DNA of 64,000 nucleotides. Source: an uncultured Flavobacteriales bacterium (GTDB lineage: Bacteria > Bacteroidota > Bacteroidia > Flavobacteriales_D > Crocinitomicaceae). The notes under the pieces were generated by a model. The model was not told the origin of the DNA. It did not search any database and worked only from the letters and a program-made list of their open reading frames with translations. Each line of letters starts with the position of its first letter. Positions within the stretch are counted from its first letter, which is position 1. Positions 2,104 to 63,959 of this stretch are shown piece by piece. The stretch covers positions 2,002 to 66,001 of the forward strand of contig CAYMEW010000015.1 of NCBI GenBank assembly GCA_964389755.1. Direction: 5' to 3'. Made by a program: the position numbers and the translations under genes.

Positions 2104-2798
2104 AATACAAATTGATTCTTCCCGCATTCCTGGCCCTTACCTTGCTGGCGTGCGGCAGTGCCGGTAAACAGAACCCGGAGAGTTCCAACGACGCGCAGGA
2201 GGATGCAACGGCACGTCGGTCGCCATTTACCGACAGCCTCGTTAGCCGTTTCAGAACCGTTACGCTTCCCTTCGAGATCGATTCCGCCTGGTATTCCGGC
2301 TTCGAGCCGACTGATACGCTAAGCGACCGGGACCTTCGATTTCTGCTCGAGCACGCAGCCAGTACCGTCGATTCGGCAGAGGTGAGCGATGTGTTCACCA
2401 TAAATGCACTCAAAAAAGCGGGAACTTATAACGCGTACGTCGATTCGCTGGACCTGTCGGAACTCAAAGACGCAACTGCACATCCGCTCGCGCAGTACAC
2501 CGTCGATAAAGACCGGGTGCTGATCTGGAGCATTGTGCGCTCGTCCTTTGAAGCCTGTCCGTACTATGCCGGCACAGCGATCTACCTCACTGTTATTCCG
2601 GAAAACGGCAACTCCTATTGTAAGCGCATCGGGGATGCCTTTTCCGCAGGAGATGCACCGAACTATTATTTCCGGATCTCGGAGTTTACATTCCAAAAAG
2701 ACGGGCGGATCGACGTGTTGCTCACCGAAGAGAACGGGGACGATGAACAGGTGGAAAAACGGAATCAGACGCGCTCGGCAACCTCCTGGAAATTGTGA
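2100..2798 (+). CDS. Hypothetical lipoprotein
   Basis: Signal peptide plus lipobox (LALTLLACGS). No recognisable domain. Confidence 0.6.
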   Translation: MKYKLILPAFLALTLLACGSAGKQNPESSNDAQEDATARRSPFTDSLVSRFRTVTLPFEIDSAWYSGFEPTDTLSDRDLRFLLEHAASTVDSAEVSDVFTINALKKAGTYNAYVDSLDLSELKDATAHPLAQYTVDKDRVLIWSIVRSSFEACPYYAGTAIYLTVIPENGNSYCKRIGDAFSAGDAPNYYFRISEFTFQKDGRIDVLLTEENGDDEQVEKRNQTRSATSWKL

Positions 2799-2855
2799 AT
2801 CTTCTCTGTTTAGAATCAGTCAAAATAATCGAATTGTGTATCTTTGTACTGAATT

Positions 2856-4091
2856 ATGGAAGAGCAAAAGAAAAGACCGTTCAGTGTGCGGGAGGTACGG
2901 GAAGAATTTCCGGCACTTCGCAGGCTGATCTACGGAAAGAACCTGATTTATTTCGATAACGGGGCAACTTCGCAAAAGCCGCAGGTGGTGCTCGATGCCA
3001 TCAATCATTTTTATGCGAAAGACAATGCCAACATCCATCGGGGAGTGCATTTTATGTCCCAACAGGCCACTTCCGAATACGAAGCTGCGCGTAAAACAAT
3101 TCAAGGTCACCTCAATGCTGAAAAACCCGAAGAAGTGATCTTTACCAAAGGAACCACCGATTCGATCAACCTGGTGGCGTATTCCTTCGGGCACCTGCTC
3201 AGCGAGGGAGATGAGATCATCATCACCGCGATGGAACACCATTCGAACATTGTTCCCTGGCAAATGCTCTGCGAACGCAAGAAATGCGTATTGAAAGTGG
3301 CTCCCATCAATAAAAAAGGAGAACTGATCCTGGAAGAGTACGAAAAACTGCTCAACGAACGCACGAAGCTCGTTTCAGTCGTACACATTTCAAATACGCT
3401 CGGAACGATTAACCCCGTGAAAGAGCTAATTCGAAAAGCACACGAGGTCGGAGCGCGCGTTTTGGTAGACGGTGCCCAGAGCATACAGCATACTCAGATC
3501 GATGTGCGCGATATGGATTGCGACTTCTTTGTATTCTCTGCACATAAAGTTTATGGCCCAACCGGTATCGGGATCCTCTACGGAAAAGAAGAGATCCTCG
3601 AAAAAATGCCGCCGTACCAGGGAGGTGGCGATATGATCGAAAAGGTGACTTTTGAACGAACAACCTACAACGAACTGCCGTTCAAGTTCGAAGCGGGAAC
3701 ACCGCACATTGCCGGGGGGATCTGCCTCGGGAAAGCGCTTGAATACCTCGAGCAGTTCGACATGGAAGCGATCAAAAAGCACGAAACGGAACTGGGTGAA
3801 TACGCCTCGGACCTGCTTTCCACATTCGAGGGAATGCGACTGATCGGAACAGCTAAGAAGAAAACCAGTGTGGTCTCCTTCGTCGTCGAAGGAATCCACC
3901 CTTTTGATATCGGAACGCTCCTGGATAAACAGGGAATTGCCGTGCGTACCGGGCATCACTGCACACAACCCCTGATGGACTTTTACCAGGTTCCCGGAAC
4001 GGTGCGCGCTTCATTTGCGTTCTACAATACCAAAGAAGAGATCGATACCTTTATCACCGCCGTCGAAAAAAGTATCTCGATGCTGAAATAG
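2856..4091 (+). CDS. sufS: Cysteine desulfurase SufS (class V aminotransferase)
   Basis: IYFDNGATSQKP, HHSNIVPWQ, SAHKVYGPTGIG (PLP Lys), RTGHHCTQPL (active-site Cys). Confidence 0.92.
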   Translation: MEEQKKRPFSVREVREEFPALRRLIYGKNLIYFDNGATSQKPQVVLDAINHFYAKDNANIHRGVHFMSQQATSEYEAARKTIQGHLNAEKPEEVIFTKGTTDSINLVAYSFGHLLSEGDEIIITAMEHHSNIVPWQMLCERKKCVLKVAPINKKGELILEEYEKLLNERTKLVSVVHISNTLGTINPVKELIRKAHEVGARVLVDGAQSIQHTQIDVRDMDCDFFVFSAHKVYGPTGIGILYGKEEILEKMPPYQGGGDMIEKVTFERTTYNELPFKFEAGTPHIAGGICLGKALEYLEQFDMEAIKKHETELGEYASDLLSTFEGMRLIGTAKKKTSVVSFVVEGIHPFDIGTLLDKQGIAVRTGHHCTQPLMDFYQVPGTVRASFAFYNTKEEIDTFITAVEKSISMLK

Positions 4092-4114
4092 CGTCGACTA
4101 AAAAAGAAACAGCG

Positions 4115-4919: not shown

Positions 4920-6164
4920 ATGAAAAGAGTGGTTATCACCGGGATGGGAGCGTTGACTCCGCTCGGGAACGATCTGAAAACGTTTTGGAAAAACCTGAAA
5001 GCAGGAGTGAGCGGGGCGGCACCGATCACGAAGTTCGATACGACCCGCTTTAAAACGCAATTTGCCTGTGAATTAAAGGACTTCGATCCGAAAGCGCATT
5101 TCGATGTAAAGGAATTGCGTAAATACGATCCGTTTTCGCAGTATGCGCTCGTAGCGGTTGACGAAGCGGTTAAGCACGCCGGTATCGATTTTGAAAAACT
5201 CAACCGCGATCGTATCGGTGTGATCTGGGGATCCGGAAACGGGGGAATCCAGACTTTCCAGGATCAGATGATCGAATATTGTGATGGCGACGGAACACCG
5301 CGCTTTACGCCCTTTTTTATCCCGCGTATACTCGTCGATATAGCTTCCGGTATCATCTCGATCAAATACGGACTTCGCGGAGTGAATTTTTGCCCGGTAT
5401 CCGCCTGTGCAACTTCCAATACCGCACTCATTGAAGCCTTTAACTACATCCGCTGGGGAAAAGCGGACATGATCATCTCCGGCGGATCGGAAGCCGCTAT
5501 TAACGAAGCGGCGATCGGTGGTTTTTCTTCTGCGAAAGCACTTTCCACGCGCAATGACGATCCGGCATCTGCCTCCAGGCCTTTTGATGAGAGCCGCGAC
5601 GGTTTCGTAATGGGCGAAGGTGCCGGCGCGATCATTCTTGAATCTTATGAACATGCCATGGAGCGAGGCGCAACGATCTACGGTGAAGTTGTCGGCGGAG
5701 GAATGGCTGCGGACGCCTATCACCTCACCGGAACGCACCCGGAAGGAGACGGCGCCGTGCTTGGAATGAATGAAGCGATTCGGGAAGCGGGAATTACGGC
5801 TGCCGAAATCGATTATCTGAACATGCACGCGACGAGTACACCACAGGGTGATACCTCCGAACTGATTGCAGCAAAGCGCGTTTTCGAAGGAAATAAAGAC
5901 CTCTTCGTTTCTGCTACGAAGTCCATGACGGGTCACTTACTTGGAGCGGCTGGAGCCGTGGAAGGAATTGCCTGTGTGATGGCACTGGCCGATGGCGTGG
6001 TTCCCCCGACGATCAACACGCAGACGGTAGAGGGAGAATATGCAAACCTGTTTAACTTTCCGCTGGGAGAAGCGATTTCGCGGGAATTGACTTATGCGAT
6101 GAGCAATACCTTTGGTTTTGGCGGACACATTGCGTCCATCGTGTTTAAGAAATTTGAAAAATAG
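4920..6164 (+). CDS. fabF: Beta-ketoacyl-ACP synthase II
   Basis: KRVVITGMG, active-site SACATS, HATSTPQGD, SMTGHLLGAAG, NTFGFGGHI. Confidence 0.93.
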   Translation: MKRVVITGMGALTPLGNDLKTFWKNLKAGVSGAAPITKFDTTRFKTQFACELKDFDPKAHFDVKELRKYDPFSQYALVAVDEAVKHAGIDFEKLNRDRIGVIWGSGNGGIQTFQDQMIEYCDGDGTPRFTPFFIPRILVDIASGIISIKYGLRGVNFCPVSACATSNTALIEAFNYIRWGKADMIISGGSEAAINEAAIGGFSSAKALSTRNDDPASASRPFDESRDGFVMGEGAGAIILESYEHAMERGATIYGEVVGGGMAADAYHLTGTHPEGDGAVLGMNEAIREAGITAAEIDYLNMHATSTPQGDTSELIAAKRVFEGNKDLFVSATKSMTGHLLGAAGAVEGIACVMALADGVVPPTINTQTVEGEYANLFNFPLGEAISRELTYAMSNTFGFGGHIASIVFKKFEK

Positions 6165-6183
6165 CCGTTTTTAACGGTTAAGC
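6161..6183. repeat. 23-nt hairpin motif copy (ATAGCCGTTTTTAACGGTTAAGC)
   Basis: Identical 23-mer at 58920-58942. Here it spans the TAG stop of fabF and the TAA stop (complement) of the convergent gene. Stem CCGTT/AACGG. Confidence 0.85.
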
Positions 6184-23884: not shown

Positions 23885-24640
23885 ATGCGCATTTCAGTAA
23901 TCACCTGCATCCTCGTGGCCGGAACGTTTATGGCCTGCACCGATCAAACGGATGAAAAACAAATGGAAGGAGGATCAGATGCAAACATATCCGACAGCCT
24001 TTCAATGAATGACAGTACGAATGTCGCAACGAATTCCGATACGCTGCACCTGGGCAGTTACGTCCTTGAATTGCATTCCGGGGGACCGGTAAAGATCTCG
24101 AAAACGTACGACGGTGAGTGGAGTGCCGATGAAAAATTGCCACATACACCGCGCATTCGCAGAACCGGTGACAGTCTTATTTTGACGCTTAATAATGGTA
24201 AGACCGTTTCTTTGGTCAATATTCCCTTTTGGGACGATGCGGAAGGCAATCACAACATGGATGAAACGGTTAATTACGCATACTTCAGGGATATCGGCAA
24301 CTACTGGGAAGTACAGGCATTCTGTTACGAATGCAATTACATGGTCTTTGTAAACAAGGAAACCGGGAAAACCTTCACAACGATCGGTCCCGGAGTGATC
24401 TCCCCCTCGGGGAACCTGTTGTTCTGCGCGAACATCGACCTGGAAGCCGGCTTTTCACTGAACGGTATCGAACTATACCGGAAAGAAAGTCAGGGCTACA
24501 GCCTCGTTGCTACCCGCGAACTACCCTGGAGCATCCACCAGTTGCGCTGGAAGAACGATTCCACCATCGCCGGCCAGCGCGTGGGTTTGACGGAAGACAT
24601 GGATTTCGAGCTGTTCGAAGTGGAATTGCGGGTTAGGTAA
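23885..24640 (+). CDS. Hypothetical lipoprotein
   Basis: Lipobox VAGTFMAC. No recognised domain. Confidence 0.55.
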   Translation: MRISVITCILVAGTFMACTDQTDEKQMEGGSDANISDSLSMNDSTNVATNSDTLHLGSYVLELHSGGPVKISKTYDGEWSADEKLPHTPRIRRTGDSLILTLNNGKTVSLVNIPFWDDAEGNHNMDETVNYAYFRDIGNYWEVQAFCYECNYMVFVNKETGKTFTTIGPGVISPSGNLLFCANIDLEAGFSLNGIELYRKESQGYSLVATRELPWSIHQLRWKNDSTIAGQRVGLTEDMDFELFEVELRVR

Positions 24641-24658
24641 AGGCTAAACAGACGAGAA

Positions 24659-25204
24659 ATGAGACAGGAAGCAGTGTTTGAAAGCAAAGCATTTTACCTT
24701 TGGGTCGTGGCAAGCGGGCTGGCCATTCTTTGTACGCCATTCATGGTAGGAGAAGTCGGGGAGGGATACTGGATAACTGCTCTTGTCATCTTCCTACTCA
24801 TCGCCGGCACGTCGGTCCGCAAGTTTACTTTTTATAATAATCGCATTGTTCGAACGGCTGTATTTCGTCCCTTTTTTCGGAAGAAGCAATACGCGTACGA
24901 CGAACTTTTATTTGTCGAGATCAGGAAAAGAAAAGAACCCTATCAGCGTCCATACATCAATCTGCATGTGAACCCGAAACGCATTTCAAGCATATTCTTT
25001 GCACACCGTGCGTTCATCTTTTCCGATTATAAAGAACTGAAGCCTTTAATTTTGCACCTGATCCGCAGGAACGTCGCCATACGACTCAACATGACAAAAG
25101 AATATCCTGATGAATTCACTTACTTGTCCGAACTTGTTTTAAAAAATAACGGCAAACTACTTTCGGCAAAAGATATGGGTGAATATCGAAAGCGAAACGT
25201 GTGA
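24659..25204 (+). CDS. Hypothetical membrane protein
   Basis: Two N-terminal TM helices. No recognised domain. Confidence 0.5.
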   Translation: MRQEAVFESKAFYLWVVASGLAILCTPFMVGEVGEGYWITALVIFLLIAGTSVRKFTFYNNRIVRTAVFRPFFRKKQYAYDELLFVEIRKRKEPYQRPYINLHVNPKRISSIFFAHRAFIFSDYKELKPLILHLIRRNVAIRLNMTKEYPDEFTYLSELVLKNNGKLLSAKDMGEYRKRNV

Positions 25205-25213
25205 GAACGTATA

Positions 25214-25932
25214 ATGACTAAACAAAAAAATACAATGGGAACCACTTATTTTGTAAGATGCACTTTCTACATCCTGCTCAGTATCGGATTCGTTTTGAAT
25301 TCCTGCGATGCTTCTCCGCCCAGAGTAAAACACGTTCCGATAAATTGCAATTCAAACATGTGTATCACACGAGAAATAATGGATGAAGGCGCATTTGGTA
25401 GTTCATTCACTAGCTATGCCATAAAGATAGGACGTCACATTCAAAAAATAAAAATTCAGCATTTTAAAATATTGGATAGCCTTTATGGGAAGATTCGAAT
25501 ACAGTCGTTGCCCTTTTTGACGACTTAAATAGGGATGAGTTTTTCTCGGATACCAGTTACGTCGTAACGGTTAGTGGACAGCGTATCGAGGTCTGTCAGC
25601 TTAATAAATTCAGGTATTTTACAAATATCCGGCTGATTGATTCAATTCCGTTTAACGCAGAAAGGACGGCATACAAATACAGTGTATCAGCTCCTGATTT
25701 TCCGGGTGAAAAGTACATTCAGTATTCTGTTTCGGGGTCGTCGAAGCAGCTTCCGGTCAGGGGCAACCTCATTTGGGCGAATCAATGGTTGTACACTGAT
25801 CCCATGTTGAGTCTTGAAGTTCGTGAACCTGGAAAACTAACTTTGACCTTTGATAAACAGTATGAAAATGCCATTTTGTTTGTCGACACCTCACTAATAG
25901 AAGTTCGGCCAGTTAATAGATGGGGTGGTTAA
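25214..25932 (+). pseudogene. Lipoprotein gene split by a frameshift at a T5 run
   Basis: ORF 25214-25528 has a lipobox (VLNSC). The -1 frame is open from 25480 to the TAA at 25930-25932 with no usable start codon. Adding one T to the run at 25514-25518 fuses the two into about 240 aa. Confidence 0.6.
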
Positions 25933-26057
25933 AATGGCTTTATATGCTGGCTGGACCGGTCCTGTTTTTAACTGTAATTACAGCAATTCGATCTTAGAAG
26001 AAATTAGATAATGGATTTAGTTATAATACACAAATATATCGCTAAAGTTATGGGCTT

Positions 26058-26113
26058 GTTCGTGTGAATTCCGTCCATTTTCTGTTAAAGGAATGAAAGG
26101 AATTCACATGAAC
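26058..26113. repeat. Imperfect 22-bp-arm inverted repeat (hairpin)
   Basis: gttcgtgtgaattccgtccatt / aatgaaaggaattcacatgaac around a 12-nt loop, with three mismatches. Lies in the spacer after the frameshifted gene. Confidence 0.7.
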
Positions 26114-26200
26114 GCGAACCGCAGAATCGTGCCGATAACCTTTCTTTGGTAATTACAAATGTTGTTGAGGAATCCAATTTGAACGATTTATATTCATAAT

Positions 26201-26452
26201 ATGAATGAAGAAGACTTTCTTAAGAAAAAAAACAACTTAATGGATCTGATTTCAAAAAGCATGTTGGAAACAGGCATTAGTATGCAGCAAAGAGCCTCGT
26301 TGGTTAAACTGTTAGAAATATTAAACCGATATTCATTTCAAAATAGAATAGACAGGAAAGGTTTACTCACGCACACAATTATCGATAGTTTGGAACTGGA
26401 CCATTCCGTAGGTGGAGAACTAATAAGGTTTGACAGCGAAATCCATCAATGA
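26201..26452 (+). CDS. Hypothetical small cytoplasmic protein (83 aa)
   Basis: ATG-initiated ORF in the AT-rich array. Helical and charged, no signal peptide. Confidence 0.5.
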   Translation: MNEEDFLKKKNNLMDLISKSMLETGISMQQRASLVKLLEILNRYSFQNRIDRKGLLTHTIIDSLELDHSVGGELIRFDSEIHQ

Positions 26453-26502
26453 TATATTAAGAGGAGCAACTCCTTACAAAAATATAAACATCATGCTTAA
26501 TC

Positions 26503-26522
26503 TGCACTCCTGGTTTATTTTC
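26503..26522 (+). repeat. Array intergenic repeat, short/degenerate copy D
   Basis: tgcactcctggtttattttc resembles copy E (tgcgcatttcaattcgatggtttatttttt) and the head of copies A and B. Confidence 0.4.
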
Positions 26523-26599
26523 TAAATTAGAAGATGTGAACGTCACTGGGTCATTTTTTTCTGCGATCGTCGTGACCTGCATTCAATATTACAATTTTA

Positions 26600-27004
26600 A
26601 TGAAAGCAACAAAACTGATTTTCTGCGTATTCCTCCTTACCTCATGTCTGTCCGATTACAAACTGGATACATTAAATAATGATTTTAAAATAGGGTACGT
26701 CGAATTATCCAGATACAGAAATATCTATTATCAAGATCAGGGATTATTTCACAGGAAATGTGTTTATTCGGTAATTGTAGATGACCAGTTCATTTACGTC
26801 AAAACCCACCCGTTTAATAAACAAAATACGCTTGTGAAAGATTCTAGTATGCTGTTTGTTATTGATCTGGAAAAATATAAGCTACAACCGGATCAGGAGA
26901 ATAGCCCGGGGATATTGGGTCCTTTTAAGGAAGAAGATTTCAAAAACAGCACATTAGGAAGAAGTATTAAAAATGAAGATTGGCTGGAATATCCGTTTGA
27001 GTAG
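26600..27004 (+). CDS. Hypothetical lipoprotein (134 aa)
   Basis: Lipobox FLLTSC. AT-rich array member. Confidence 0.55.
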   Translation: MKATKLIFCVFLLTSCLSDYKLDTLNNDFKIGYVELSRYRNIYYQDQGLFHRKCVYSVIVDDQFIYVKTHPFNKQNTLVKDSSMLFVIDLEKYKLQPDQENSPGILGPFKEEDFKNSTLGRSIKNEDWLEYPFE

Positions 27005-27135
27005 AAGAATTATTTTGATACAGGTCTGCTTAAAAGAGGTGGAGTGATCGAATAGATTCATTAAAGAAAAAGAAAAACATGCTGACCCTTTTAAAACAGA
27101 AAGCGGTAGATTCAAACACAGAAACAGAACGAGGA

Positions 27136-27633
27136 ATGAGTCACATGAAATTATTAAAACCGACTATTCAAATGCACACGTTATTCGTTAAATTTTTATT
27201 GGTATTTGGCTTGGCCTCATGCAGGACCGATAATGATCCAGGTATGGATAAAGTTCAAGTATTTAATGAGAATAATGTTGGTTTAAATATCGAAAGGGTG
27301 TTTAAGGACTCCGTTGGCTATACAATAATGGGTAATTTGGTTAATCAAGGATCTGATTCGATTGAGATATTGCCAAATGATCATAGTAGCTTTGTCTGTT
27401 ATTTTAAGATTGCTTTTTTTAAGGACAATGAATGGTCTGATTGGAAAGAATGTTTGCCTAAATATTATGTAGAATTTCCTGACCATATAGTTTTAGAACC
27501 AAATGCTAGCGTAAATTTTCGACTCAATTCGCGTATTGATTTTGGAGAATCAGATAATGCGTTTGAAGGATTAAAACTGAAGTTTAGTCGAATAGATGTT
27601 GATTCCGTGATTGTTGATTATTATTTGAATTAG
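27136..27633 (+). CDS. Hypothetical lipoprotein
   Basis: The ORF runs 27079-27633. The likely start is MSHMKLLKPT... with lipobox FGLASC. Confidence 0.55.
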   Translation: MSHMKLLKPTIQMHTLFVKFLLVFGLASCRTDNDPGMDKVQVFNENNVGLNIERVFKDSVGYTIMGNLVNQGSDSIEILPNDHSSFVCYFKIAFFKDNEWSDWKECLPKYYVEFPDHIVLEPNASVNFRLNSRIDFGESDNAFEGLKLKFSRIDVDSVIVDYYLN

Positions 27634-27657
27634 CACAAATGATTGTAATCAACTCAG

Positions 27658-27720
27658 TGCGCATTCACCACTCGAGTGGGCGTATTTTGCCCCGCACGAT
27701 TCAAACCATTCGGGCTTAAA
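27658..27720 (+). repeat. Array intergenic repeat, copy A
   Basis: tgcgcattcaccactcgagtgggcgtattttgccccgcacgattcaaaccattcgggcttaaa aligns along its length with copy B (29606-29680). Confidence 0.75.
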
Positions 27721-27806
27721 TCTAGATTTTAATAAAAGTGTATGTAATTTTACAATCCGAAAAATTGGGCAGCATTATCAAATTATCCATATTTACCATT
27801 TAGATA

Positions 27807-28232
27807 TTGAATTATATAGAAAACAAAAGCGAATATTATAATAGCGATTGGGATCGCATGTGGAAGGATATATTGAATTATGCAATGAATAATTCAGACT
27901 ACGTATCTTTTAATATTTTATTCGAAGATGAGCGATTAAAAAAAATGATAACAGATTTCAATGGTATTATTAAAACCGTGGATAAAGAGTACCAAAGTGG
28001 GAAATCGGTTTTTTTTCCAATATCTGAAAAAATATCGGCTTTTCTTATTAAGAAAGAATTTAATGATTGGATTAATTTTTGCGTTGAGGATCCATCATTT
28101 TGGAAAGATGATAGGGAGTTTGTAGCGACGATTTCGCATGAAGGATATATTATGTTTAATATTGAGGAGAAAGAAAAAAAATACTTCGCTGATATTGGAC
28201 TAATGACTTTTAAAGTTCGACAAAGGATTTAA
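27807..28232 (+). CDS. Hypothetical cytoplasmic protein (141 aa; TTG or internal ATG start)
   Basis: ORF in the AT-rich array. The first in-frame start is TTG; the first ATG is at 27858. No signal peptide. Confidence 0.5.
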   Translation: MNYIENKSEYYNSDWDRMWKDILNYAMNNSDYVSFNILFEDERLKKMITDFNGIIKTVDKEYQSGKSVFFPISEKISAFLIKKEFNDWINFCVEDPSFWKDDREFVATISHEGYIMFNIEEKEKKYFADIGLMTFKVRQRI

Positions 28233-28304
28233 AGAGAGTTTAAGATAGATTATATAATTAGTTAAATTGTCGCGAGGTGCTGCTCAGCAATATTATATTC
28301 GTCT

Positions 28305-28628
28305 ATGATTAGGAATAATATTAGTCAATTGGGTTATATACTAATTTTAATTTTTACAAGCCATTCTTGTACGGAAAAAGACCCGTTTTATTATGTAGAG
28401 TTTAAGGACCTGAAAATTTTGGAAGTAGGAAACCAAACTGGCACAAATATCTTTCTGGTACAAGAGAAAAGCGTACCTGAAATTACAGAGGGTTATTCAT
28501 TTGTTGAATACGACAAAAACAAATTAAGTAAGTTACATGTTGGAGACGTTTTAAGAAAGAGAAGAGGATCATACGATATCTATATCTATAGATCGGGTAA
28601 ATGTGTTCAGCGTTTAAGTAGAGATTGA
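28305..28628 (+). CDS. Hypothetical small lipoprotein-like protein (107 aa)
   Basis: N-terminal hydrophobic segment ending FTSHSC. Confidence 0.5.
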   Translation: MIRNNISQLGYILILIFTSHSCTEKDPFYYVEFKDLKILEVGNQTGTNIFLVQEKSVPEITEGYSFVEYDKNKLSKLHVGDVLRKRRGSYDIYIYRSGKCVQRLSRD

Positions 28629-28650
28629 TGAGTAGTTTGGAAGTAGGCGA

Positions 28651-28705
28651 AGTGGCGTTTTCTCTCTAAGTGTAAATGTTGCGCCATTTGCTTACTGCGT
28701 GTTAT
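28651..28705 (+). repeat. Array intergenic repeat, partial copy C
   Basis: agtggcgtttt...gcttactgcgtgttat matches the middle (agtggcgtatttt) and tail (gcttacttttgtgttat) of copy B. Confidence 0.5.
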
Positions 28706-28719
28706 GGGTATTTAATATT

Positions 28720-28750
28720 TGCGCATTTCAATTCGATGGTTTATTTTTTG
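28720..28750 (+). repeat. Array intergenic repeat, short copy E
   Basis: tgcgcatttcaattcgatggtttattttttg shares the TGCGCATT(T)CA head and the TGG..TATTTT core with copies A and B. Confidence 0.5.
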
Positions 28751-28845
28751 CTTCTTAAGAAATTTAATCAAGTCAAAGGCTTTTACGGGAAATGAAATTA
28801 ACGAAGCTGACTTCAAGTTATGCAGTTTTTCAAAAGCCAGTACTT

Positions 28846-29340
28846 ATGGATCTACAGACTAAAATATTACTTATTTTAAATTTATCAATTGTCATTGCAT
28901 GTAATGCCGATCATAAAACAAAATGGGAGGCTAAAAGAAAAGAAAACAAGCACCATACGTATGTTGCAAAAGATGATAGTATTGACGTACGCCTTAGTAA
29001 TATCTGTCTTGAACAATACAGACATATGTCGATTGTCGTATTATACCTGAGAGCTGCTCCACTTAATAACGAGATGGATAGTTTGCTTGAAAAAACAGAC
29101 ACAATTTTTTTAAGGCAGCACGGTAAAATTTATGAATGTTTGGTTTTTGATAAATGGGATAATTATCACAAAAAAATGGTTTTGCGTTACAGAACCGATA
29201 GATTAAGTGAAAAGGAGTATCGTGACTTTTTGAAAGAAGCGGATATAGATGTTCGATTTAATAATATTAATCAATGGTTCCGGTTGGATGAACGCAATTC
29301 CACCAAAGGCGTTGTACAAAATGATCTATATGAAGATTAG
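28846..29340 (+). CDS. Hypothetical lipoprotein
   Basis: The ORF runs 28792-29340. The likely start is MDLQTKILLILNLSIVIAC (lipobox). Confidence 0.55.
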   Translation: MDLQTKILLILNLSIVIACNADHKTKWEAKRKENKHHTYVAKDDSIDVRLSNICLEQYRHMSIVVLYLRAAPLNNEMDSLLEKTDTIFLRQHGKIYECLVFDKWDNYHKKMVLRYRTDRLSEKEYRDFLKEADIDVRFNNINQWFRLDERNSTKGVVQNDLYED

Positions 29341-29605
29341 ATAGGTAGTGTACCAGGGCAACCCCTAAGGAACTCTCAGAATAGACATTCGAATTCCGAA
29401 GGAAGCAAAGAAGTTATTTTCGAAATTCCGTAGTTTTGGTAGTGTCCCACACTATCACCTTTAAAATTTTAGCAATTAACTTTCTGACTTACAGTCTGTA
29501 TTCTGGCTTTTTACCTGTCAACGAGTGAAGGTAATCTTCTTTTGTTTTTGGTTTTTAGTTATTCCGAAACAAAAGTGATTGCCCTTTTACCCATTTTCAC
29601 CCACC

Positions 29606-29680
29606 TGCGCATTCACCCCCGCAAAGTGGCGTATTTTACCGCGCACCATCCAAACCCTTCGGCTTACTTTTGTGTTATAC
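29606..29680 (+). repeat. Array intergenic repeat, copy B
   Basis: tgcgcattcacccccgcaaagtggcgtattttaccgcgcaccatccaaacccttcggcttacttttgtgttatac. The conserved outer pairing TGCGC...GCGCA is also present in copy A (TGCG...CGCA). Confidence 0.75.
29665..29672 (+). promoter_or_regulatory. Bacteroidota -7 box (TACTTTTG) inside repeat copy B
   Basis: Matches TAnnTTTG. Lies 73 nt upstream of the DinB-like ATG. Confidence 0.4.
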
Positions 29681-29744
29681 CCTAAACCGGTCCTGCGCAG
29701 CACGCATTTTCTGTAGGTTGCCGGGATTTGTAAAACACGGAAAC

Positions 29745-30248
29745 ATGGAGGATCAACGGCTAATAAACGATTATGAAACGGTTACGAAACAGCTCCTGCA
29801 ACTGCTGGACGGACTCTCGGAACAGGAACTGAATACGGTGCCCTTTGAAGGAAGCTGGACCGCCGGACAACTCGGGGATCACCTGCGTCAGGCCTACGGA
29901 ATCACCGAACTGCCGGTTGAATACCACGCTACGGAGCGCGACCCGCTGCAACACGAAACGGCTTTGCATTCCATTTTTGATAACGATGCGGAAAAGTACC
30001 GGTCGCCCGAAGCAATTCTGCCGGCAGATCATTATTTCGACAAAGCACGGCTCATCGGGGAGATCCGCGAACGCGCCGAAGCGTTGCAAACAGGCATGTC
30101 CGACCATGGAACGGAGGAAGTAAGTGCATTTGACTTTCCCGGGCTGGGGGCACTCACCGGTTACGAACAACTCGTTCTGGCAACGGTACACACCAATCGG
30201 CACAACAGACAACTGGAAACGATTATCGAACGGTTAAAAAACGGCTAA
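29745..30248 (+). CDS. DinB-family protein
   Basis: Four-helix DinB-type pattern (WTAGQLGDHL ... HTNRHNRQLE). The internal ATG at 29745 is preferred over the ORF-track start. Confidence 0.7.
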   Translation: MEDQRLINDYETVTKQLLQLLDGLSEQELNTVPFEGSWTAGQLGDHLRQAYGITELPVEYHATERDPLQHETALHSIFDNDAEKYRSPEAILPADHYFDKARLIGEIRERAEALQTGMSDHGTEEVSAFDFPGLGALTGYEQLVLATVHTNRHNRQLETIIERLKNG

Positions 30249-30249
30249 G

Positions 30250-30606: not shown

Positions 30607-30654
30607 GCGGAAAAAGCTGTTCAATGAAGCATATAATTCTGAAAAAGAAAGGCC

Positions 30655-31038
30655 ATGTTAAAGCAATCAAAAGCATTCAGCGGGTTTTCCGTGAACGACC
30701 TCGGGAAGGCCAGGCAGTTTTACGGTGAAACGCTCGGACTCGACGTCAAAGAAAGTGAAATGGGCATGCTCGAACTGCACACGCCAGGCAATAACGGGAT
30801 CATTGTCTATCCGAAGGAAAACCACGAAGCAGCAAGTTTTACCGTACTCAATTTCCCGGTAAGCGATATTGAGGCCGTGGTGGACGACCTGAGTGCGAAA
30901 GGCGTTGTTTTCGAACAGTACGGAGAACCGATAAAAACGGATAAGAAAGGCATTTGCCGCAACGAATACGGTCCGCTGATCGCCTGGTTCAAAGATCCTG
31001 CGGGAAATATTTTGTCGGTATTACAGGATCGAAAATAA
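30655..31038 (+). CDS. VOC (glyoxalase/bleomycin-resistance) family protein
   Basis: 127 aa. FYGETLGL ... [13 protein letters not shown], the typical VOC beta-alpha-beta-beta-beta ends. Confidence 0.75.
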
Positions 31039-31045
31039 ACGTTTC

Positions 31046-31065
31046 TAGCCGTTTCTTAACGGTTA
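31046..31065. repeat. 20-nt hairpin motif copy (TAGCCGTTTCTTAACGGTTA)
   Basis: Identical 20-mer at 62897-62916. Here it sits 8 nt after the VOC stop, at the junction with the HMG-CoA reductase fragment. Confidence 0.85.
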
Positions 31066-37606: not shown

Positions 37607-37679
37607 TCGGGATGACTGGACTCGAACCAGCGACCCCCACGTCCCGAACGTGGTACGCTACCAACTGCGCTACATCCCG
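37607..37679 (-). tRNA. tRNA-Pro (anticodon CGG)
   Basis: Reverse complement CGGGATGTAGCGCAGTTGGTAGCGTACCACGTTCGGGACGTGGGGGTCGCTGGTTCGAGTCCAGTCATCCCGA folds as a cloverleaf. Anticodon loop TTCGGGA. Confidence 0.9.
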
Positions 37680-37685
37680 TTTTTG

Positions 37686-37758
37686 TCGGGGTGACTGGAT
37701 TCGAACCAGCGACCCCTAGCACCCCATGCTAGTACGCTACCAACTGCGCCACACCCCG
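37686..37758 (-). tRNA. tRNA-Pro (anticodon GGG)
   Basis: Reverse complement CGGGGTGTGGCGCAGTTGGTAGCGTACTAGCATGGGGTGCTAGGGGTCGCTGGTTCGAATCCAGTCACCCCGA. Anticodon loop ATGGGGT. Confidence 0.9.
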
Positions 37759-41954: not shown

Positions 41955-42413
41955 TTATTTTTTCAGAAAGTCAAATGCGCCTTTGCGTAAGTTGATACCG
42001 TATTCGAGGGAAGCTTTCATACAGGCCAGGAAGTTCGCCCAGCCTTCCGTGTTATCTTTCAGCCATTTGATGCCTGCCTCGTTATTCGGCCTGCTCTTTT
42101 CCGTGACCGTAATAAGCGTTTGTGAACCGTTATCTACCGGCTCAAGGAGGAAATCTACGGTGGTTTTTTGCGCATCGGAGCCCCACGAAAGTGAAACCAG
42201 CTGATCGGGTTCAACCTTTTCGGTTTTTACCGGGAACTCATCGTTAAACTCCGGGAACTTCCAGTAAACTGTTTTCCCGCTTTCGAGCGGTCCAGAACCT
42301 TTTTCAAGAAAGTAGCCGGCCATTTTCACCGGGTCAACAATGGCATCGAATACTTCTGCTACCGGTTTTGCGATTTGCAATTTACAACGGATCTCAAGCG
42401 TTTCGTTTTTCAT
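41955..42413 (-). CDS. SRPBCC / AHSA1-family protein
   Basis: 152 aa. VFDAIVDPVKMAGYF ... GWANFLACMKASLE pattern. Confidence 0.7.
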   Translation of the reverse strand: MKNETLEIRCKLQIAKPVAEVFDAIVDPVKMAGYFLEKGSGPLESGKTVYWKFPEFNDEFPVKTEKVEPDQLVSLSWGSDAQKTTVDFLLEPVDNGSQTLITVTEKSRPNNEAGIKWLKDNTEGWANFLACMKASLEYGINLRKGAFDFLKK

Positions 42414-44438: not shown

Positions 44439-44690
44439 CTAACGGATAAGAAACGATTATTCTAATTGACAATCAGTGGCTTGTTTAAAAATCCTCAGCG
44501 AATAGCAGATCCGTAGGATCACACGACACCTCATTTAAAGAAATCCATATCCAAAATCTGCCGAAAAACCGGATTCACGCATCCGGAACCCGCCCGTCTT
44601 CCGTTTAAAAAACCATCGGATCTGATGAAATCTCGATGCCGAAGGTCACTCTCATACCTGAAATTCGCGCCGAATCGTATCTTTGCATCC

Positions 44691-45641: not shown

Positions 45642-46087
45642 GGGCCATCATTCAACGCGTTTCAAAAGCAGCAGTACATATCGACGGGAATACTCATTCC
45701 GCGATTCAAAAAGGATTGATGATCCTGCTCGGAGTGGAAGAAGCAGACACTTCCGAAGATTCGGAGTACCTCGTGAAAAAGATCTCCCAAATGCGGATTT
45801 TTCCGGATAAAGATGGGAAAATGAATCTGTCCGTGCAGGATGTGAACGGAGAATTGCTGCTCGTTAGTCAGTTTACGTTACACGCGTCTACTAAGAAAGG
45901 AAACCGCCCGAGTTTTATAAAGGCTGCGCGACCCGATACGGCGATCCCGCTTTATGAAAAAACGGCTGAGCTATTTAAAGCAGAAGGGATTCCGGTGAAA
46001 ACCGGTGTCTTCGGGGCGGATATGCAGGTAGAACTTATTAACGACGGACCCGTAACCGTTATAATCGACTCTAAAAACAGGGAATAA
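45638..46087 (+). CDS. dtd: D-aminoacyl-tRNA deacylase
   Basis: MRAIIQRV...LLVSQFTL...GNRPSF motifs. Confidence 0.92.
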
Positions 46088-58613: not shown

Positions 58614-60479
58614 TTACCGTTCCAAATGCAAGAAGCCCTGCTTCACCTCGCTCTGCGTCTCGAGTTTATAAAAATAAACGCCTTCGTTTGCAGGCAATCC
58701 CTGTTGTGTTTTTCCGTCCCAGCTGAGTTCGATGCCTTCCGCCTGATACACGAGCGTTCCCCAGCGGTTGTAGATATATAAAACACTTTGGGTGGAATAA
58801 ACCGGAAACTCCCAGAGATCGTTTATGCCGTCACCATTCGGAGTGAAAACGTTCGGAACTTCGGCAGTAGGACAGTCGAAGTCGTTTAGGCTGATGGTCT
58901 GTACTTTCGTAGTGGTTCCATAGCCGTTTTTAACGGTTAAGCTGATGGTATATGTGCCTGGTTTGGAATAACAAATATCCTGCGGATGTTGCGCTGTGGA
59001 AGATCCTGGTGTGGCGCCTTCAAATTCCCAGTACCACTCCGTCGGGGCGTTTAGCGAGGAATCTGTAAAGTCCACGCATACCTGCGGACAGGCGGTAGTA
59101 CCGGTAAATGAAAACTGCACGATCGGTTGCAGGTTTTCGCATACTGTTTTCACCGTGATCGGGTGACCCGGATCGCTAAAAGTGAACGGTTCGTATACGG
59201 CTAAGGGCTGTTCCTGCGCGGTCAGAAAAATGTCCATGCGCTCAAATACAGGTGCATCGGTTTCAAACGAAGCATCGGCCGTATAACACGAAAGATATCC
59301 CTGCGCATCGGTTTTAACCAGCGCAGCATCGCGCACATAGCCAGGCGGGCGAACATCTCCGGTGAACAGGAGTCCCTGATCCATGGTTTCGTACAGGTCG
59401 AATCCGTAATTCGTGAAAATGGGAGAAAGAGGATAGTGCCGCGCCCACAAAACTTCGCCGGTTGGTCTCACTTTCAGTAAAACGATATTTCGGGCGTCAA
59501 AACTGCCCTGATCGCCCAATAATGCCATGTTGCCGTCGTTCGTGTTTGCCAGTTTGCGAAGGTGTTCGCCGGAAGCCGTGTGTGCATCGTACCCGGTTGT
59601 TTGGATCAGTGCTCCGGAGGCATCTACTTTTAATAAATACGCGTCCCATTCCTTCCCGACGCGGTACATGGCACCGGAAATATAGAGGTCGCCGCTCACC
59701 GTTCCGATCAGGTCATAGGGCTGGTCGTCGTATTCACCGTAAAACATTCGTGACCACTGCACTACACCCTGTGCATCCGTGCGCGTAACCAGTGTGTGGC
59801 CGAACGGACCGGTAAACTGGGCATTCACTGAAGAAACAAAAGCAAAATCTCCGTTCGGCAGTTCAACAATTGCTTCGGGCGAAACACCTTGCAGGATACT
59901 ATAGTTTTTACTCCACAAAACCTGGCCGTCCTCATCGAAACGGATCAGTAAAGCACCCGGATAACCGCCGGTATTGTAATTCGTGATCGAACAACTGAGA
60001 AAACCACCGGACTGGCAGGCGATCAATTCTGCCGGACGATCCTGTCCCGAAGCTTCGATGCGGTAGTTCCAAAGTACATTCCCCGAAATATCCGTTTTCA
60101 TCAGGAACAACGCTTTTTCCGTAGAACTTTGCCTGTTCACCTGACCGAATACACAGAGTCCGCCATCGGAAGTATTAACGACATTCTTTGCAAGGGCGTA
60201 ATTACCGTCGGTAAATGTCTTTTGCCACATAATTTCTCCGTTGACATCGGTTCGAACCAGGCCGAATTCAACACCCGCTCCGCCCCACATGCCTCCGCCG
60301 GTTGTCAGTACCGTGCCTCCGTCTGCCGTTGGAATACAGGAAGTACCGTAATCACTCATATCGGTTCCGATCGTTTTTAAAAAGGTACTCTGAGCACCCG
60401 CTGACAAACCATCGCAAAGGAGTAATAAAAAAAGAGACTTCCTGAAAAAATGTTTCATATTGAAACTTAGACGTGTCAT
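58614..60479 (-). CDS. Secreted beta-propeller-like protein with a PKD domain and a T9SS type-B sorting domain
   Basis: PKD (PGTYTISLTVKNGYGTTT). C-terminus VFTPNGDGINDLWEF...YIYNRWGTLVY...GVYFYKL. The start is possibly Met at 60458. Confidence 0.8.
   Translation of the reverse strand: MTRLSFNMKHFFRKSLFLLLLCDGLSAGAQSTFLKTIGTDMSDYGTSCIPTADGGTVLTTGGGMWGGAGVEFGLVRTDVNGEIMWQKTFTDGNYALAKNVVNTSDGGLCVFGQVNRQSSTEKALFLMKTDISGNVLWNYRIEASGQDRPAELIACQSGGFLSCSITNYNTGGYPGALLIRFDEDGQVLWSKNYSILQGVSPEAIVELPNGDFAFVSSVNAQFTGPFGHTLVTRTDAQGVVQWSRMFYGEYDDQPYDLIGTVSGDLYISGAMYRVGKEWDAYLLKVDASGALIQTTGYDAHTASGEHLRKLANTNDGNMALLGDQGSFDARNIVLLKVRPTGEVLWARHYPLSPIFTNYGFDLYETMDQGLLFTGDVRPPGYVRDAALVKTDAQGYLSCYTADASFETDAPVFERMDIFLTAQEQPLAVYEPFTFSDPGHPITVKTVCENLQPIVQFSFTGTTACPQVCVDFTDSSLNAPTEWYWEFEGATPGSSTAQHPQDICYSKPGTYTISLTVKNGYGTTTKVQTISLNDFDCPTAEVPNVFTPNGDGINDLWEFPVYSTQSVLYIYNRWGTLVYQAEGIELSWDGKTQQGLPANEGVYFYKLETQSEVKQGFLHLER
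58920..58942. repeat. 23-nt hairpin motif copy (ATAGCCGTTTTTAACGGTTAAGC), inside a CDS
   Basis: Identical to 6161-6183. On the coding (minus) strand it encodes SLTVKNGY of the PKD domain. Confidence 0.85.
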
Positions 60480-61597: not shown

Positions 61598-61632
61598 GGG
61601 AGAATAACCGCGCTCTCCTTAAAATACGTGAC

Positions 61633-62706
61633 ATGCTCCGCGAACTCATCGAAAAACAGTCGAAACCCTTTGTGATCAGTGGCCCCTGTAGTGCCGAAAC
61701 GGAAGAACAAACACTCGAAACCTGTCTGCGACTTCATCAACTCGGCATTCCGCACATGCTGCGTGCCGGAATCTGGAAACCGCGTACACGCCCTGATTCT
61801 TTTGAGGGAGTGGGAGAGATCGGCCTGCAATGGCTCGTTGAAGCCGGACGGCAAACAGGACTTCCGGTAACAACCGAAGTGGCTAATGCACAGCATGTCG
61901 AACTGGCTCTGAAAGCCGGCATCCATGTGCTTTGGATCGGAGCGAGAACAACCGTTAATCCCTTTTCAGTACAGGAAATCGTGGATGCACTTCGTGGTAC
62001 TGATGTGCCGGTGATGATCAAAAATCCGGTTAACCCGGACCTTGAACTCTGGATCGGTGCTTTCGAACGTTTTCAAAAGGCCGGACTCACCGATCTGCTC
62101 GCGATCCACCGGGGCTTCTCGACTTACAAACATCCGAAATACCGCAATATCCCGAACTGGGAAATTCCCATCGCTTTTCGGGAAAGACTGCCGGAGATCC
62201 CGCTAATTTGCGACCCGAGTCACATAACCGGAAAGCGCTCACTGCTGCAGGAAACAGCCCAAAAGGCCATGGACCTGAATTACTGCGGACTGATGATCGA
62301 AAGTCATTGCCATCCCGATGAGGCCTGGTCGGATGCCGCGCAACAGGTGACACCGGAAAAGCTCCGCGCGATCCTGGACGGGCTCGTATTGCGTTCACCG
62401 AACGTGTCACCCTCCGCACAGGAAAAACTCGAGGAATTCCGGGAAAAGATCGCTGTGCTCGACGACAGGCTCTTCGATATTCTCTCCGCACGTATGTTAC
62501 TCAGTGAGGAGGTAGGTGCTTTTAAGAAAGAGAATCACATTACAATCCTCCAGGAAGAACACTGGAAACGCATGATCGCTAAATACCTCGGACGTTCCGC
62601 CGAACTAAAGCTCTCGGAAAGTTTCGTACGTCGCATCATGGACGCGATCCACCAGGAATCGATCCGCCACCAGACGCGTGTAATGAATAACCCGGGCGAG
62701 TCATGA
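61633..62706 (+). CDS. Bifunctional 3-deoxy-7-phosphoheptulonate synthase / chorismate mutase
   Basis: FVISGPCSAE...RAGIWKPRTRP (type I-beta DAHPS) and a C-terminal CM type II helix bundle (RIAVLDDRLFDILSARM...). Confidence 0.88.
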   Translation: MLRELIEKQSKPFVISGPCSAETEEQTLETCLRLHQLGIPHMLRAGIWKPRTRPDSFEGVGEIGLQWLVEAGRQTGLPVTTEVANAQHVELALKAGIHVLWIGARTTVNPFSVQEIVDALRGTDVPVMIKNPVNPDLELWIGAFERFQKAGLTDLLAIHRGFSTYKHPKYRNIPNWEIPIAFRERLPEIPLICDPSHITGKRSLLQETAQKAMDLNYCGLMIESHCHPDEAWSDAAQQVTPEKLRAILDGLVLRSPNVSPSAQEKLEEFREKIAVLDDRLFDILSARMLLSEEVGAFKKENHITILQEEHWKRMIAKYLGRSAELKLSESFVRRIMDAIHQESIRHQTRVMNNPGES

Positions 62707-63959
62707 AAACCATAGTACCCGGCCCTTGTGTCGGTAACATATACATTCCTCCCTCAAAAAGCGATGCACAACGCGCGCTTTTGGCGGCTTCGCTCTTTGG
62801 AACGGAAACACGTCTGTACAACGTGGGCAATAGTGCGGATGAACAGGCCATGCGCCGCTGCTGCGAGGCACTTGGTGCTCAAATAATCGATTCCGATAGC
62901 CGTTTCTTAACGGTTAAGGCAACGGCTGAAATTCCCGACAATCGTGAACTGGATTGCGGAGAAAGCGGGTTGTGTACACGGCTGCTGGCAGGAACACTTG
63001 TACTGTCCGGTAAACGCTTTACACTGAACGGACACGGCAGTCTGAAACAACGAGAATTTCCCGAAATACGGAGTTTTGTGTCTCAATTCATGGGTCCTGG
63101 GTTCGAATCCCGGCGGGATCACATACCATTAACGATCGATGCACTGAACATTTCCGGCAACATCTCGGCCGACGGCTCCACGGGCTCTCAGTTCGTTTCG
63201 GGACTTCTCACCGGGATGTGCCTGAATGGAAACATTAACGAACTGGAAGTGACAAAGCTCACAAGCATTCCTTATGTGCGCATGACGCTCGCCACACTCC
63301 GTGAATTCGGTTTTGACTTTCAGGAGCATGAAATGCGTCATTTTACCCTCCGCGACACCGGACACCGGACAAGTTCGTATAACGTGGCTGCCGACTGGAG
63401 CAGTGCTTCCTGCTGGCTTGTAGCTGCGGCTCTGCAGGAAAAACCAGGTGAACTCATGATTTCCAACCTCGACAGTTCGAGTCCACAGGCTGATAAAAAA
63501 ATACTGGAGGCCCTACTGCTAGCCGGATGTCGCGTTATGGTCTCAGATTCGGGAATTGCCGTGGATGGTTCGGTACGAAAGCCCTTTTCGTTCGACGCCA
63601 CTCATTGCCCCGACCTTTTTCCGGCCCTGGCTGTTTTGGCCGCGCTTACCGAAGGAACTTCGGAGATTAACGGGGTACAACGCCTGCGCAATAAAGAAAG
63701 TGATCGGGCGAAGGCCATCTGTGAAGAATGGTCTAAAGCCGGAATTCGGGTGGAAGTAGATGAGGATCGAATGCTTATTCATGGTGACAGATCGGTAAAA
63801 GCGTCCGCTTTTGATGCGCACAATGATCACCGTATGGCCATGGCCTGCGCCATACTCGCAAGCTTTGCAAATGCGCCGTCAACCATTGGCGGAGCAGGTT
63901 CCGTAGCGAAAAGTTACCCGGAATTCTGGGAACATTTCGCAAAAGTGCACCGTGCTTAG
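62703..63959 (+). CDS. aroA: 3-phosphoshikimate 1-carboxyvinyltransferase (EPSP synthase)
   Basis: PPSKSDAQRALL, DGSTGSQFVSGLL, RNKESDR, HNDHRMAMA motifs. Confidence 0.9.
   Translation: MKTIVPGPCVGNIYIPPSKSDAQRALLAASLFGTETRLYNVGNSADEQAMRRCCEALGAQIIDSDSRFLTVKATAEIPDNRELDCGESGLCTRLLAGTLVLSGKRFTLNGHGSLKQREFPEIRSFVSQFMGPGFESRRDHIPLTIDALNISGNISADGSTGSQFVSGLLTGMCLNGNINELEVTKLTSIPYVRMTLATLREFGFDFQEHEMRHFTLRDTGHRTSSYNVAADWSSASCWLVAAALQEKPGELMISNLDSSSPQADKKILEALLLAGCRVMVSDSGIAVDGSVRKPFSFDATHCPDLFPALAVLAALTEGTSEINGVQRLRNKESDRAKAICEEWSKAGIRVEVDEDRMLIHGDRSVKASAFDAHNDHRMAMACAILASFANAPSTIGGAGSVAKSYPEFWEHFAKVHRA
62897..62916. repeat. 20-nt hairpin motif copy (TAGCCGTTTCTTAACGGTTA), inside aroA
   Basis: Identical to 31046-31065. 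Encodes SRFLTVK in aroA. Confidence 0.85.

Follow-up and report, generated by a model that had tools for sequence, protein, structure and literature searches.

Introduction

To our knowledge, few DNA words are known to be kept over genes (uptake signals, the parS, matS and Noc sites, Chi, and HIP1), and none has been described for the Bacteroidota. Here we describe a motif of 19–23 nucleotides (nt) that recurs within and at the ends of unrelated genes in a 64,000-nt stretch, hereafter the window, of contig CAYMEW010000015.1 from an uncultured Flavobacteriales bacterium (Crocinitomicaceae; assembly GCA_964389755.1). A preliminary description of the window, made from its letters and predicted reading frames, had singled this motif out as a hairpin-forming element acting at the level of DNA. 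As set out below, its copies behave as overlays on existing genes, and the unit that they share is an 8-nt word placed in helical phase.

Several described systems offer points of comparison. The sites of the parS/ParB, matS/MatP, NBS/Noc, and SBS/SlmA systems are bound by dedicated dimeric proteins and are dyad-symmetric, at least 13–16 bp long and nearly exact; they number from few to tens per region, lie in genes as often as between them, and arise by substitution. Operators of the OmpR/PhoB/ArcA and Xis/Cox types consist of helically phased direct repeats in promoters or att arms, and the HIP1 sequence of cyanobacteria is a palindromic 8-mer present at very high density. Integron attC sites, which follow each cassette, span 55–140 nt and contain paired R''/L'' and L'/R' boxes.

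Two further classes are relevant. Uptake signals occur in hundreds to thousands of copies on both strands, at about 1 per kb, and go with competence machinery and a specific DNA receptor that biases uptake; mobile palindromic repeats are mainly extragenic insertions of extra DNA, in tens to hundreds of copies, in genomes with a cognate RAYT or Y1 transposase gene. DNA uptake sequences (DUS) of the Neisseriaceae, which occur in dialects (PMC3630211), and uptake signal sequences (USS) of the Pasteurellaceae are short words laid over genes by substitution. Repetitive extragenic palindromic (REP) repeats, together with the SMAG and REPIN repeats, are mobilised by RAYT transposases (PMC3733652, PMC3116915). 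REPs of 20–40 bp are known downstream of genes and sometimes inside genes, and one end of the repeat is marked by a conserved tetranucleotide, GTAG or CGTC (PMC3733652).

Results

Exact copies in unrelated genes

Two variants of the motif each occur twice in the window, all four copies on the plus strand: the 23-mer ATAGCCGTTTTTAACGGTTAAGC (variant 1) at 6161–6183 and 58920–58942, and the 20-mer TAGCCGTTTCTTAACGGTTA (variant 2) at 31046–31065 and 62897–62916. The variants differ by a one-base insertion, an extra C in the loop. The exact recurrence, the single-base difference, and the gene contexts given in the preliminary description were all recovered:

6161..6183, + strand: exact 23-mer (variant 1), over the fabF stop and the 3' end of the convergent Dph6-like gene
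31046..31065, + strand: exact 20-mer (variant 2), 7 nt past the VOC stop
58920..58942, + strand: exact 23-mer (variant 1), within a minus-strand PKD/CHU_C type IX secretion cargo gene
62897..62928, + strand: exact 20-mer (variant 2) with a third word-like unit, within aroA

None of 100 dinucleotide-preserving shuffles of the window contained a match to the 23-mer or the 20-mer. Among the repeated 16-mers of the window, the motif is the sole non-trivial family, the remainder being single 16–17-mers at chance level or repeats within one gene. The copy at 6161 contributes the fabF stop TAG (6162–6164), which is followed by a 6-nt spacer between the two stops; read on the opposite strand, the same copy encodes L N R, the final three residues of the Dph6-like (diphthamide-synthase-like) protein, and provides the TAA stop of that gene. 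The copy at 58920 encodes S-L-T-V-K-N-G-Y in the PKD/CHU_C protein, and that in aroA encodes D-S-R-F-L-T-V-K. Because stop codons fill most frames of the motif (five of the six in variant 1, four in variant 2), all coding copies read x-T-V-K and the motif often supplies stops.

The copy at 31046 directly adjoins the cut end of a minus-strand 5' fragment of an HMG-CoA reductase gene, the homology of which stops within 4 codons of the motif. The arrangement at 30971–31478 is a rearrangement scar: a 41-nt direct repeat of the VOC gene tail (98% identical) stands at 30971–31011 and 31438–31478, the second copy being an orphan VOC 3' end, and the sequence between the repeats holds the motif copy and the 88–90-codon HMG-CoA reductase fragment with its upstream region.

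The DNA derives from a metagenome-assembled genome of seawater sample SAMN20336532, and the window forms part of an 85.7-kb contig. We rebuilt 83.9 kb of this contig from other assemblies, and counts for the motif family given below were made on these 83.9 kb. The window bears Bacteroidota type IX secretion markers. Its aroA protein has no more than 50% identity to the best match among 5.8 billion proteins, and its ClpX shares 90% identity with that of one 7-kb contig and 83% with matches in Flavobacteriia, Fluviicola, and the like. The organism was found in one seawater sample only; an ENA metagenome scaffold and Logan contigs from the same run, all of that sample, also bear motif copies. When the contigs of this run were matched to a 50-nt stretch in order to find other motif loci, the home contig alone was recovered. 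Three assemblies agree on the copies and leave all reading frames intact, effectively disposing of the assembly artefact that the preliminary description had allowed for; since several assemblies carry the copies, these are not the product of one assembler. GC skew along the sequence is flat, and replication orientation is not readable from it.

Origin of the copies in place

Comparison with homologs bears on how the motif came to lie where it does. The aroA gene shows no indel relative to 59 homologs, and the motif falls in a segment that is variable among them. The PKD gene likewise shows no indel across the motif relative to 10 orthologs (45%–61% identical). These orthologs read L-T-(V/A/I)-(S/T/E)-N-(A/S/T)-x-G at this place, and the K and G of LTVKNGYG are unique to the window protein. 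Where ortholog DNA could be compared, as the preliminary description had proposed, the motif is absent from both PKD orthologs (AAACTCACTGCGAGCAATGCCTTT in L066, AAACTCACGGTTAGCAATGCTGTT in L067), about half of the positions being different. FabF aligns through the last residue of solved FabF chains and the Dph6-like protein ends at the same point as its homologs; only 6 nt lie between the two stops, and there is therefore no room for an inserted element. The aroA, PKD, FabF, and Dph6-like proteins are all of normal length despite the motif, which introduces rare codons (TTA, 9% of Leu; ATA, 10% of Ile; CTA, 4% of Leu).

As judged from these alignments, the copies are shown to be overlays that appear to have been written by base substitution and not inserted, with protein lengths unchanged. 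The recurrence is not due to homology or codon constraint, and the earlier claim of a DNA-level element stands: the host genes are unrelated, the codons are rare, the residues are unique to the lineage, and two PKD orthologs lack the motif. Base substitution under a force acting at the level of DNA explains the copies most simply, more so than the insertion of a mobile element.

An 8-nt word at 11-nt phase

The motif resolves into an 8-nt word, AACG(G/A)(T/C/A)TA. This word occurs 51 times in the 83.9 kb, as compared with 17.6 ± 10.4 times for 400 decoy words of the same composition, two of which reached 51 occurrences. As to spacing, nine pairs of neighbouring words lie 10–12 nt apart, whereas the decoys averaged 0.01 such pairs and none had more than 1. 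Each of the four exact copies is an inverted word pair (TAGCCGTT, 3–4 nt, then AACGGTTA), in which the next word follows 11–12 nt after the first; the inverted 19/20-mer is the tightest arrangement of the word. In aroA, a third word-like unit, AACGGCTG, follows at 62921–62928, 12 nt after the second word. Other arrangements are direct:

29755..29784, + strand: direct word triplet at 11-nt spacing (AACGGCTA, AACGATTA, AACGGTTA), first 14 codons of DinB_2
30218..30247, + strand: direct word triplet at 11-nt spacing (AACGATTA, AACGGTTA, AACGGCTA), DinB_2 end
44441..44459, + strand: direct phased pair AACGGATA-N3-AACGATTA, beginning 2 nt past the stop of a 163-aa gene

The DinB gene thus carries direct triplets at both ends, in different reading frames. 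The second of these runs over the final codons of DinB_2 and its stop, shortly before the SnoaL ATG, and contains the inverted degenerate copy (30228–30247) of the preliminary description. The pair at 44441 scores as a 4-mismatch copy of the motif on the minus strand. Half-sites alone showed no enrichment beyond the composite copies. Gene ends carry the word arrays more often than expected, and further arrays are found within genes.

Degenerate copies and placement of the family

At four mismatches or fewer, the motif family has 12 members in the 83.9 kb, with the following spectrum: four members have no mismatch, none has one, two have two, two have three, and four have four. Shuffles of the same sequence yielded 0.06 copies at up to three mismatches and 0.36 at exactly four, and permuted decoy motifs found 0.08–0.24 matches on the real sequence. 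The degenerate copies noted earlier at 2243 (three mismatches) and 30228 (minus strand, two to three mismatches) are among these members. In addition to the sites given above, the degenerate copies in the window are:

2243..2262, + strand: degenerate copy TAGCCGTTTCAGAACCGTTA, 3 mismatches, within the gene for a 232-aa protein
30925..30943, - strand: degenerate copy, 3 mismatches, inside the VOC gene
42113..42132, + strand: degenerate copy, 4 mismatches, inside an AHSA1-family gene
46053..46071, - strand: degenerate copy, 4 mismatches, towards the 3' end of the gene for D-Tyr-tRNA deacylase

The copy at 2243 is read in the same frame as that in aroA (S-R-F-R-T-V-T), and the copies at 42113 and at L059:7728-7747 have a variant left arm, TAAGCGTTT, in common. 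Five of the 12 copies (6162, 30228, 31046, 44440, and L059:7728) have a stop codon no more than about 25 nt away (P ~6e-5, on our own assumption that 4% of the DNA is such territory). Six lie inside genes, and one, at L059:837-856, in a divergent promoter region. The density of exact copies is four in 83.9 kb, or about 1 per 21 kb, and reaches 0.14 per kb when degenerate copies are included.

Hairpin potential

The exact copies have an 8-bp stem of seven Watson–Crick pairs and one G-T pair. In plus-strand RNA, all four fold this stem (with a G-U pair) at minimum free energies of -11 to -15 kcal/mol; relative to shuffles, z was -2.2 to -2.6 at 6150, 31034, and 62885, and -0.8 at 58909. The eight degenerate copies retain four to seven of the eight stem pairs, and no compensatory stem changes were found among them. 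Direct word arrays are unable to fold. The hairpin, which the preliminary description had treated as the defining feature, is therefore not the common denominator, given that direct 11-nt-phased arrays do not fold and that stems in degenerate copies are uncompensated; the common denominator is the word and its helical phase.

The motif in relatives and in other Bacteroidota

The nearest relative, the 7-kb contig with the 90% identical ClpX, carries a phased pair, TTAACCGTTTTTTAACCGTTAA, 14 nt past a gene stop. About 58 kb from more distant relatives (ClpX 83% or PKD 59%–61% identical) contained no exact copy and no phased pair. One of these relatives, L067 (PKD ortholog 59% identical), bears TAGCCGTTTCAAAACCGTTA at positions 961–980, also found at L068:4597, in a gene for a pyridoxal phosphate-dependent enzyme of Cys/Met metabolism; this sequence is one base off the degenerate copy at 2243 of the window.

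A scan of a 596-Gbp genome collection for exact matches to the 19/20-mer, in which the variable position could hold any base or be missing, yielded 40 loci, never many per genome; the window's own genome is not among them. Of these loci, 21 are intergenic and belong to Bacteroidota (Chitinophagales, Saprospiraceae, Flavobacteriales, and Bacteroidales), with one or a few per genome, where our rough estimate of the chance expectation is about one. A third word at +10 to +12 nt accompanies 13 of the 21 intergenic loci, as compared with 2/147 at control offsets and 0/17 among coding matches. About ten of the matches are of a different kind, lying in the gene for ribosomal protein L9 of Neisseria, Betaproteobacteria, and some Bacteroidota, where the residues VTVKNGY (within VTVKNGYARNF) are encoded with the exact 19-mer on the complementary strand:

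L006, L007, L010, L016, L017, L021, L024, L026, L030, L037: L9 coding matches

This coding coincidence indicates that the 19-mer can occasionally arise without a DNA-level function.

Outside the window's lineage, several loci carry the composite in arrays. Metagenome-assembled genomes of Bacteroidales (L036, L023, L020:3230-3470, and L022) contain long non-coding arrays of 97–110-bp units, each unit including TAGCCGTTTATTAAC(G/C)GTTAAGTAACGGATAA; at L036:1-2033, a 97-bp unit is repeated in tandem about 16 times, and at L023:5965-6314, the tandem unit is 110 bp. One such array precedes the gene for a LytS-type histidine kinase, and the Bacteroidales 32-mer is also found at dispersed single intergenic loci of one genome (L032, L039). 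A BLAST search with this 32-nt composite against plasmids and phages returned nothing relevant. In Brumimicrobium glaciale IC156 (L025:7139-8000), a non-coding tandem repeat of a 226-bp unit comprises at least four units and runs off the locus; each unit holds TAGCCGTTTTTAACGGTTA and a variant, TAGTCGTTTTTAACCGTTA. A four-word phased array, TAGCCGTTTTTAACGGTTAACTAACGGTTAAGTAACGGTTAGAAACGACTAAC, lies at L001:1138-1275 between genes for a 519-aa tyrosine integrase and a 119-aa zinc-ribbon protein, and in L018 the same array is accompanied by a copy of the first part of the zinc-ribbon gene that carries a frameshift. Metagenome contigs of the Joint Genome Institute contributed 12 loci with the exact motif, mostly of the Bacteroidales type, and viral contigs one. 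The genes next to the motif in other Bacteroidota (integrase, zinc-ribbon, histidine kinase, flippase, AHSA1, lipoproteins) showed no common theme. These searches show the composite to be a rare non-coding site elsewhere in the phylum, with dispersal through genes only in the window's lineage.

Other features of the window

The region 23885–31038 is low in G+C (0.39–0.43) and holds about eleven small genes on one strand (lipoprotein-like, unknown, DinB_2, SnoaL_2, VOC). Within it, a 35-nt intergenic repeat occurs at 27679–27713 and 29628–29662 (86% identical). The stretch resembles a cassette array, the spacers of which do not contain the motif. An integron attC site or cassette boundary was considered for the motif and rejected, as 19–23 nt is too short and the intergenic spacers of this array (24–29.7 kb) lack the motif. 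Two adjacent minus-strand tRNA genes at 37607–37758 adjoin a block of collagen-like, lectin, and metallopeptidase-like genes (31.5–37.5 kb), near which no integrase was found.

Discussion

A putative binding site

Both the word structure and the 11-nt phase suggest a protein that contacts the helix on one face. Our tentative first choice, although we hold it somewhat more likely to be wrong than right, is that the motif is a double-stranded-DNA recognition site of a sequence-specific protein, kept by selection or drive. The force keeping the copies would be a protein that reads double-stranded DNA and may bind one word per helical turn, in the manner of a winged-helix or helix-turn-helix protein; the inverted 19/20-mer would be its highest-affinity composite site, and hairpin potential and the stop codons in four or five of six frames would be by-products. 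The lineage of the window may have multiplied these sites along its chromosome for a purpose such as nucleoid or segregation organisation, or regulation. The near-identical composite at one or few non-coding loci in other orders suggests that the reader is old in the Bacteroidota and that the lineage of the window multiplied its sites.

Known DNA-binding systems resemble the motif in part. As with parS, matS, NBS, and SBS sites, the motif has dyad symmetry. Its four exact copies lie within 57 kb, two of them in genes. It differs from those sites in sequence, in a spacer that varies by 1 bp, and in its additional direct phased arrays. Canonical parS is absent from the window. The phased operators of the OmpR/PhoB/ArcA and Xis/Cox types share the geometry of the word arrays, being words of 7–9 bp at 10–11 bp centre to centre in runs of two to four: the triplets at 29755 and 30218 and the pair at 44441 are all spaced by exactly 11 nt, and the triplets at the DinB and SnoaL starts and the four-word array of L001 have the geometry of winged-helix operators. 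In contrast to such operators, the exact 20-mers sit in housekeeping genes or at 3' ends, and the inverted arrangement is atypical; some copies do lie at gene starts (DinB, SnoaL) or in a divergent promoter (L059:837-856), whereas the four exact ones are in genes or at 3' ends. Like HIP1, the motif is a palindromic DNA word kept in unrelated genes by a DNA-level force, but it is a 19–23-mer of low density with a substructure of word and phase. A LytTR-type operator is a further candidate: ACCGTTAAG matches its published 9-mer consensus, and a LytS-type kinase gene lies next to one Bacteroidales array, but spacing and orientation do not fit.

Several observations weigh against a binding site. 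The four exact sites are identical over 19–23 nt, including spacer and flanks, and copies with one mismatch number zero; such uniformity exceeds that of the usual sites of a single binder and fits copying or strong drive better. The spacer is one base longer in one variant, and rigid dimeric DNA binders tolerate a 1-base change of spacer poorly, while hairpin loops tolerate it well. The third phased word accompanies only one of the four exact copies, though it is typical of other Bacteroidota loci. No candidate reader protein was identified in the 84 kb, and the exact sites in aroA and in the gene for a secreted protein have no obvious regulatory purpose. The density, moreover, derives from 84 kb of one metagenome-assembled genome and may not hold genome-wide.

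A broader claim, which we regard as rather unlikely, is that the lineage has multiplied an ancient, phylum-wide AACGRYTA word-array site, with exact copies over housekeeping genes, into a genome-wide system of DNA tags. Such a system may be a code for chromosome architecture or segregation, or a signal for uptake or recombination, and its putative reader is probably conserved.

Alternative explanations

The main rival to a protein binding site is drive of the kind that maintains uptake signals, in which a receptor prefers DNA that bears the motif, and uptake followed by recombination spreads the substitutions that create it. We consider this explanation unlikely; it would account for the overlays and for the surplus of exact copies. 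As in DUS and USS, the overlays keep protein length and are tolerated in variable protein segments, here at the cost of rare codons and residue changes; copies lie in genes and at gene ends, including one between convergent genes in the manner of DUS pairs; exact copies far exceed those with one mismatch (four vs. none); and the motif is lineage-specific, being missing in more distant relatives. The dimensions fit less well, in that 19–23 nt is longer than any known uptake core (9–12 nt in DUS/USS) and the local density, about 1 exact copy per 21 kb on one contig against about 1 per kb, is some 20-fold below that of known signals. The architecture is also atypical of uptake signals: the motif is built of a repeated 8-nt word at 11-nt phase that includes direct arrays, and the composite occurs at single non-coding loci and in tandem arrays in other orders. 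No competence gene was present among the Pfam matches of the 84 kb, and we know of no uptake specificity or uptake signal in Bacteroidota.

The preliminary description had also proposed a REP-like element. In its fuller form, this would be a REP/SMAG/REPIN-type repeat multiplied by a RAYT-like single-strand transposase and acting at gene ends as an RNA-level stabiliser or terminator. The motif is an imperfect palindrome of 19–23 nt (20–40 nt in that class), with an 8-bp stem containing one G-T pair; like such repeats, it has sub-variants (two exact, with a third left arm common to two degenerate copies), is enriched just past genes and between convergent genes, as the stop-codon proximity calculated above indicates, and has some copies inside genes. 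However, all three exact sites at which length could be tested gain none, so they are not insertions, and the GTAG or CGTC tag is missing, the copies starting ATAG, ATAG, CTAG, and ATAG. Half of the family lies in coding sequence, the stem is not kept in degenerate copies, and direct word arrays cannot fold. The 19/20-mer also recurs in other orders, unlike lineage-private REPs, and no Y1 transposase or RAYT appears among the Pfam matches of the 84 kb. We therefore hold this origin to be quite improbable.

Of similarly low probability is a core site for a site-specific recombinase, formed by inverted 7–8-bp arms (TTARCCG) around a 7–8-bp overlap. It would explain the junction at 31046, where the copy lies exactly between the VOC stop and the truncated HMG-CoA reductase fragment, and copies with identical overlaps could recombine to give deletions or excisions. 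Within each variant the would-be overlap is indeed identical, all four exact copies are in direct orientation, and the four-word array of L001 adjoins a tyrosine integrase gene. The aroA and PKD genes, on the other hand, are collinear with their homologs across the motif, which rules out junctions at those copies; the two pairs also alternate along the sequence (6161, 31046, 58920, 62897), an order not produced by simple integrations. On these same two grounds, attL/attR sites of integrated elements were rejected. No recombinase gene was found among the Pfam matches of the 84 kb.

Slightly weaker still, and in our view very improbable, is a role in RNA, with the hairpin terminating transcription or stabilising mRNA 3' ends and the copies in genes being incidental. 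The 8-bp stem that all four exact copies form in plus-strand RNA is compatible with such a role, as is the orientation of the hairpin-capable copies at gene ends, which are read along the upstream gene (fabF, VOC, TilS); a T-rich tract comes after the 6162 copy when it is read on the minus strand, where a terminator scan also flagged it. Against this, a U tract is lacking at three of the four copies, the region has no more terminator-like matches than shuffles do (26 vs. 25), and a terminator within aroA or the PKD gene, where exact copies lie, would do harm. Degenerate copies do not conserve the stem, and an Rfam scan returned two tRNAs only and no family matching the motif. An intrinsic terminator proper, with a G+C-rich stem and a U tract, was rejected, the T tract being confined to the minus strand at 6162.

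Chance, codon-driven coincidence, or an artefact of assembly or library is effectively refuted: the L9 genes do demonstrate that coding alone can produce the 19-mer, and a single 23-mer pair, at about 6e-5 per window, would be expected somewhere among 250,000 windows, but chance cannot account for a second exact pair, eight degenerate copies, and phased word arrays; the motif draws on rare codons, one copy lies outside any coding frame, and three assemblies with intact frames agree.

Implications

A literature search by sequence words returned primer matches only and no description of the word or the composite. A tag system, if real, would have no described counterpart in Bacteroidota. Should the copies turn out to be limited to this contig, the motif would be of local interest only. 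Each known example of DNA words kept over genes has opened a field. The array of Brumimicrobium glaciale IC156 offers a culturable handle for finding the putative reader. Where unrelated genes contain exact 20-nt words and pay for them in rare codons and altered residues, those words would amount to a second layer of information in these genes, addressed to a reader other than the ribosome.

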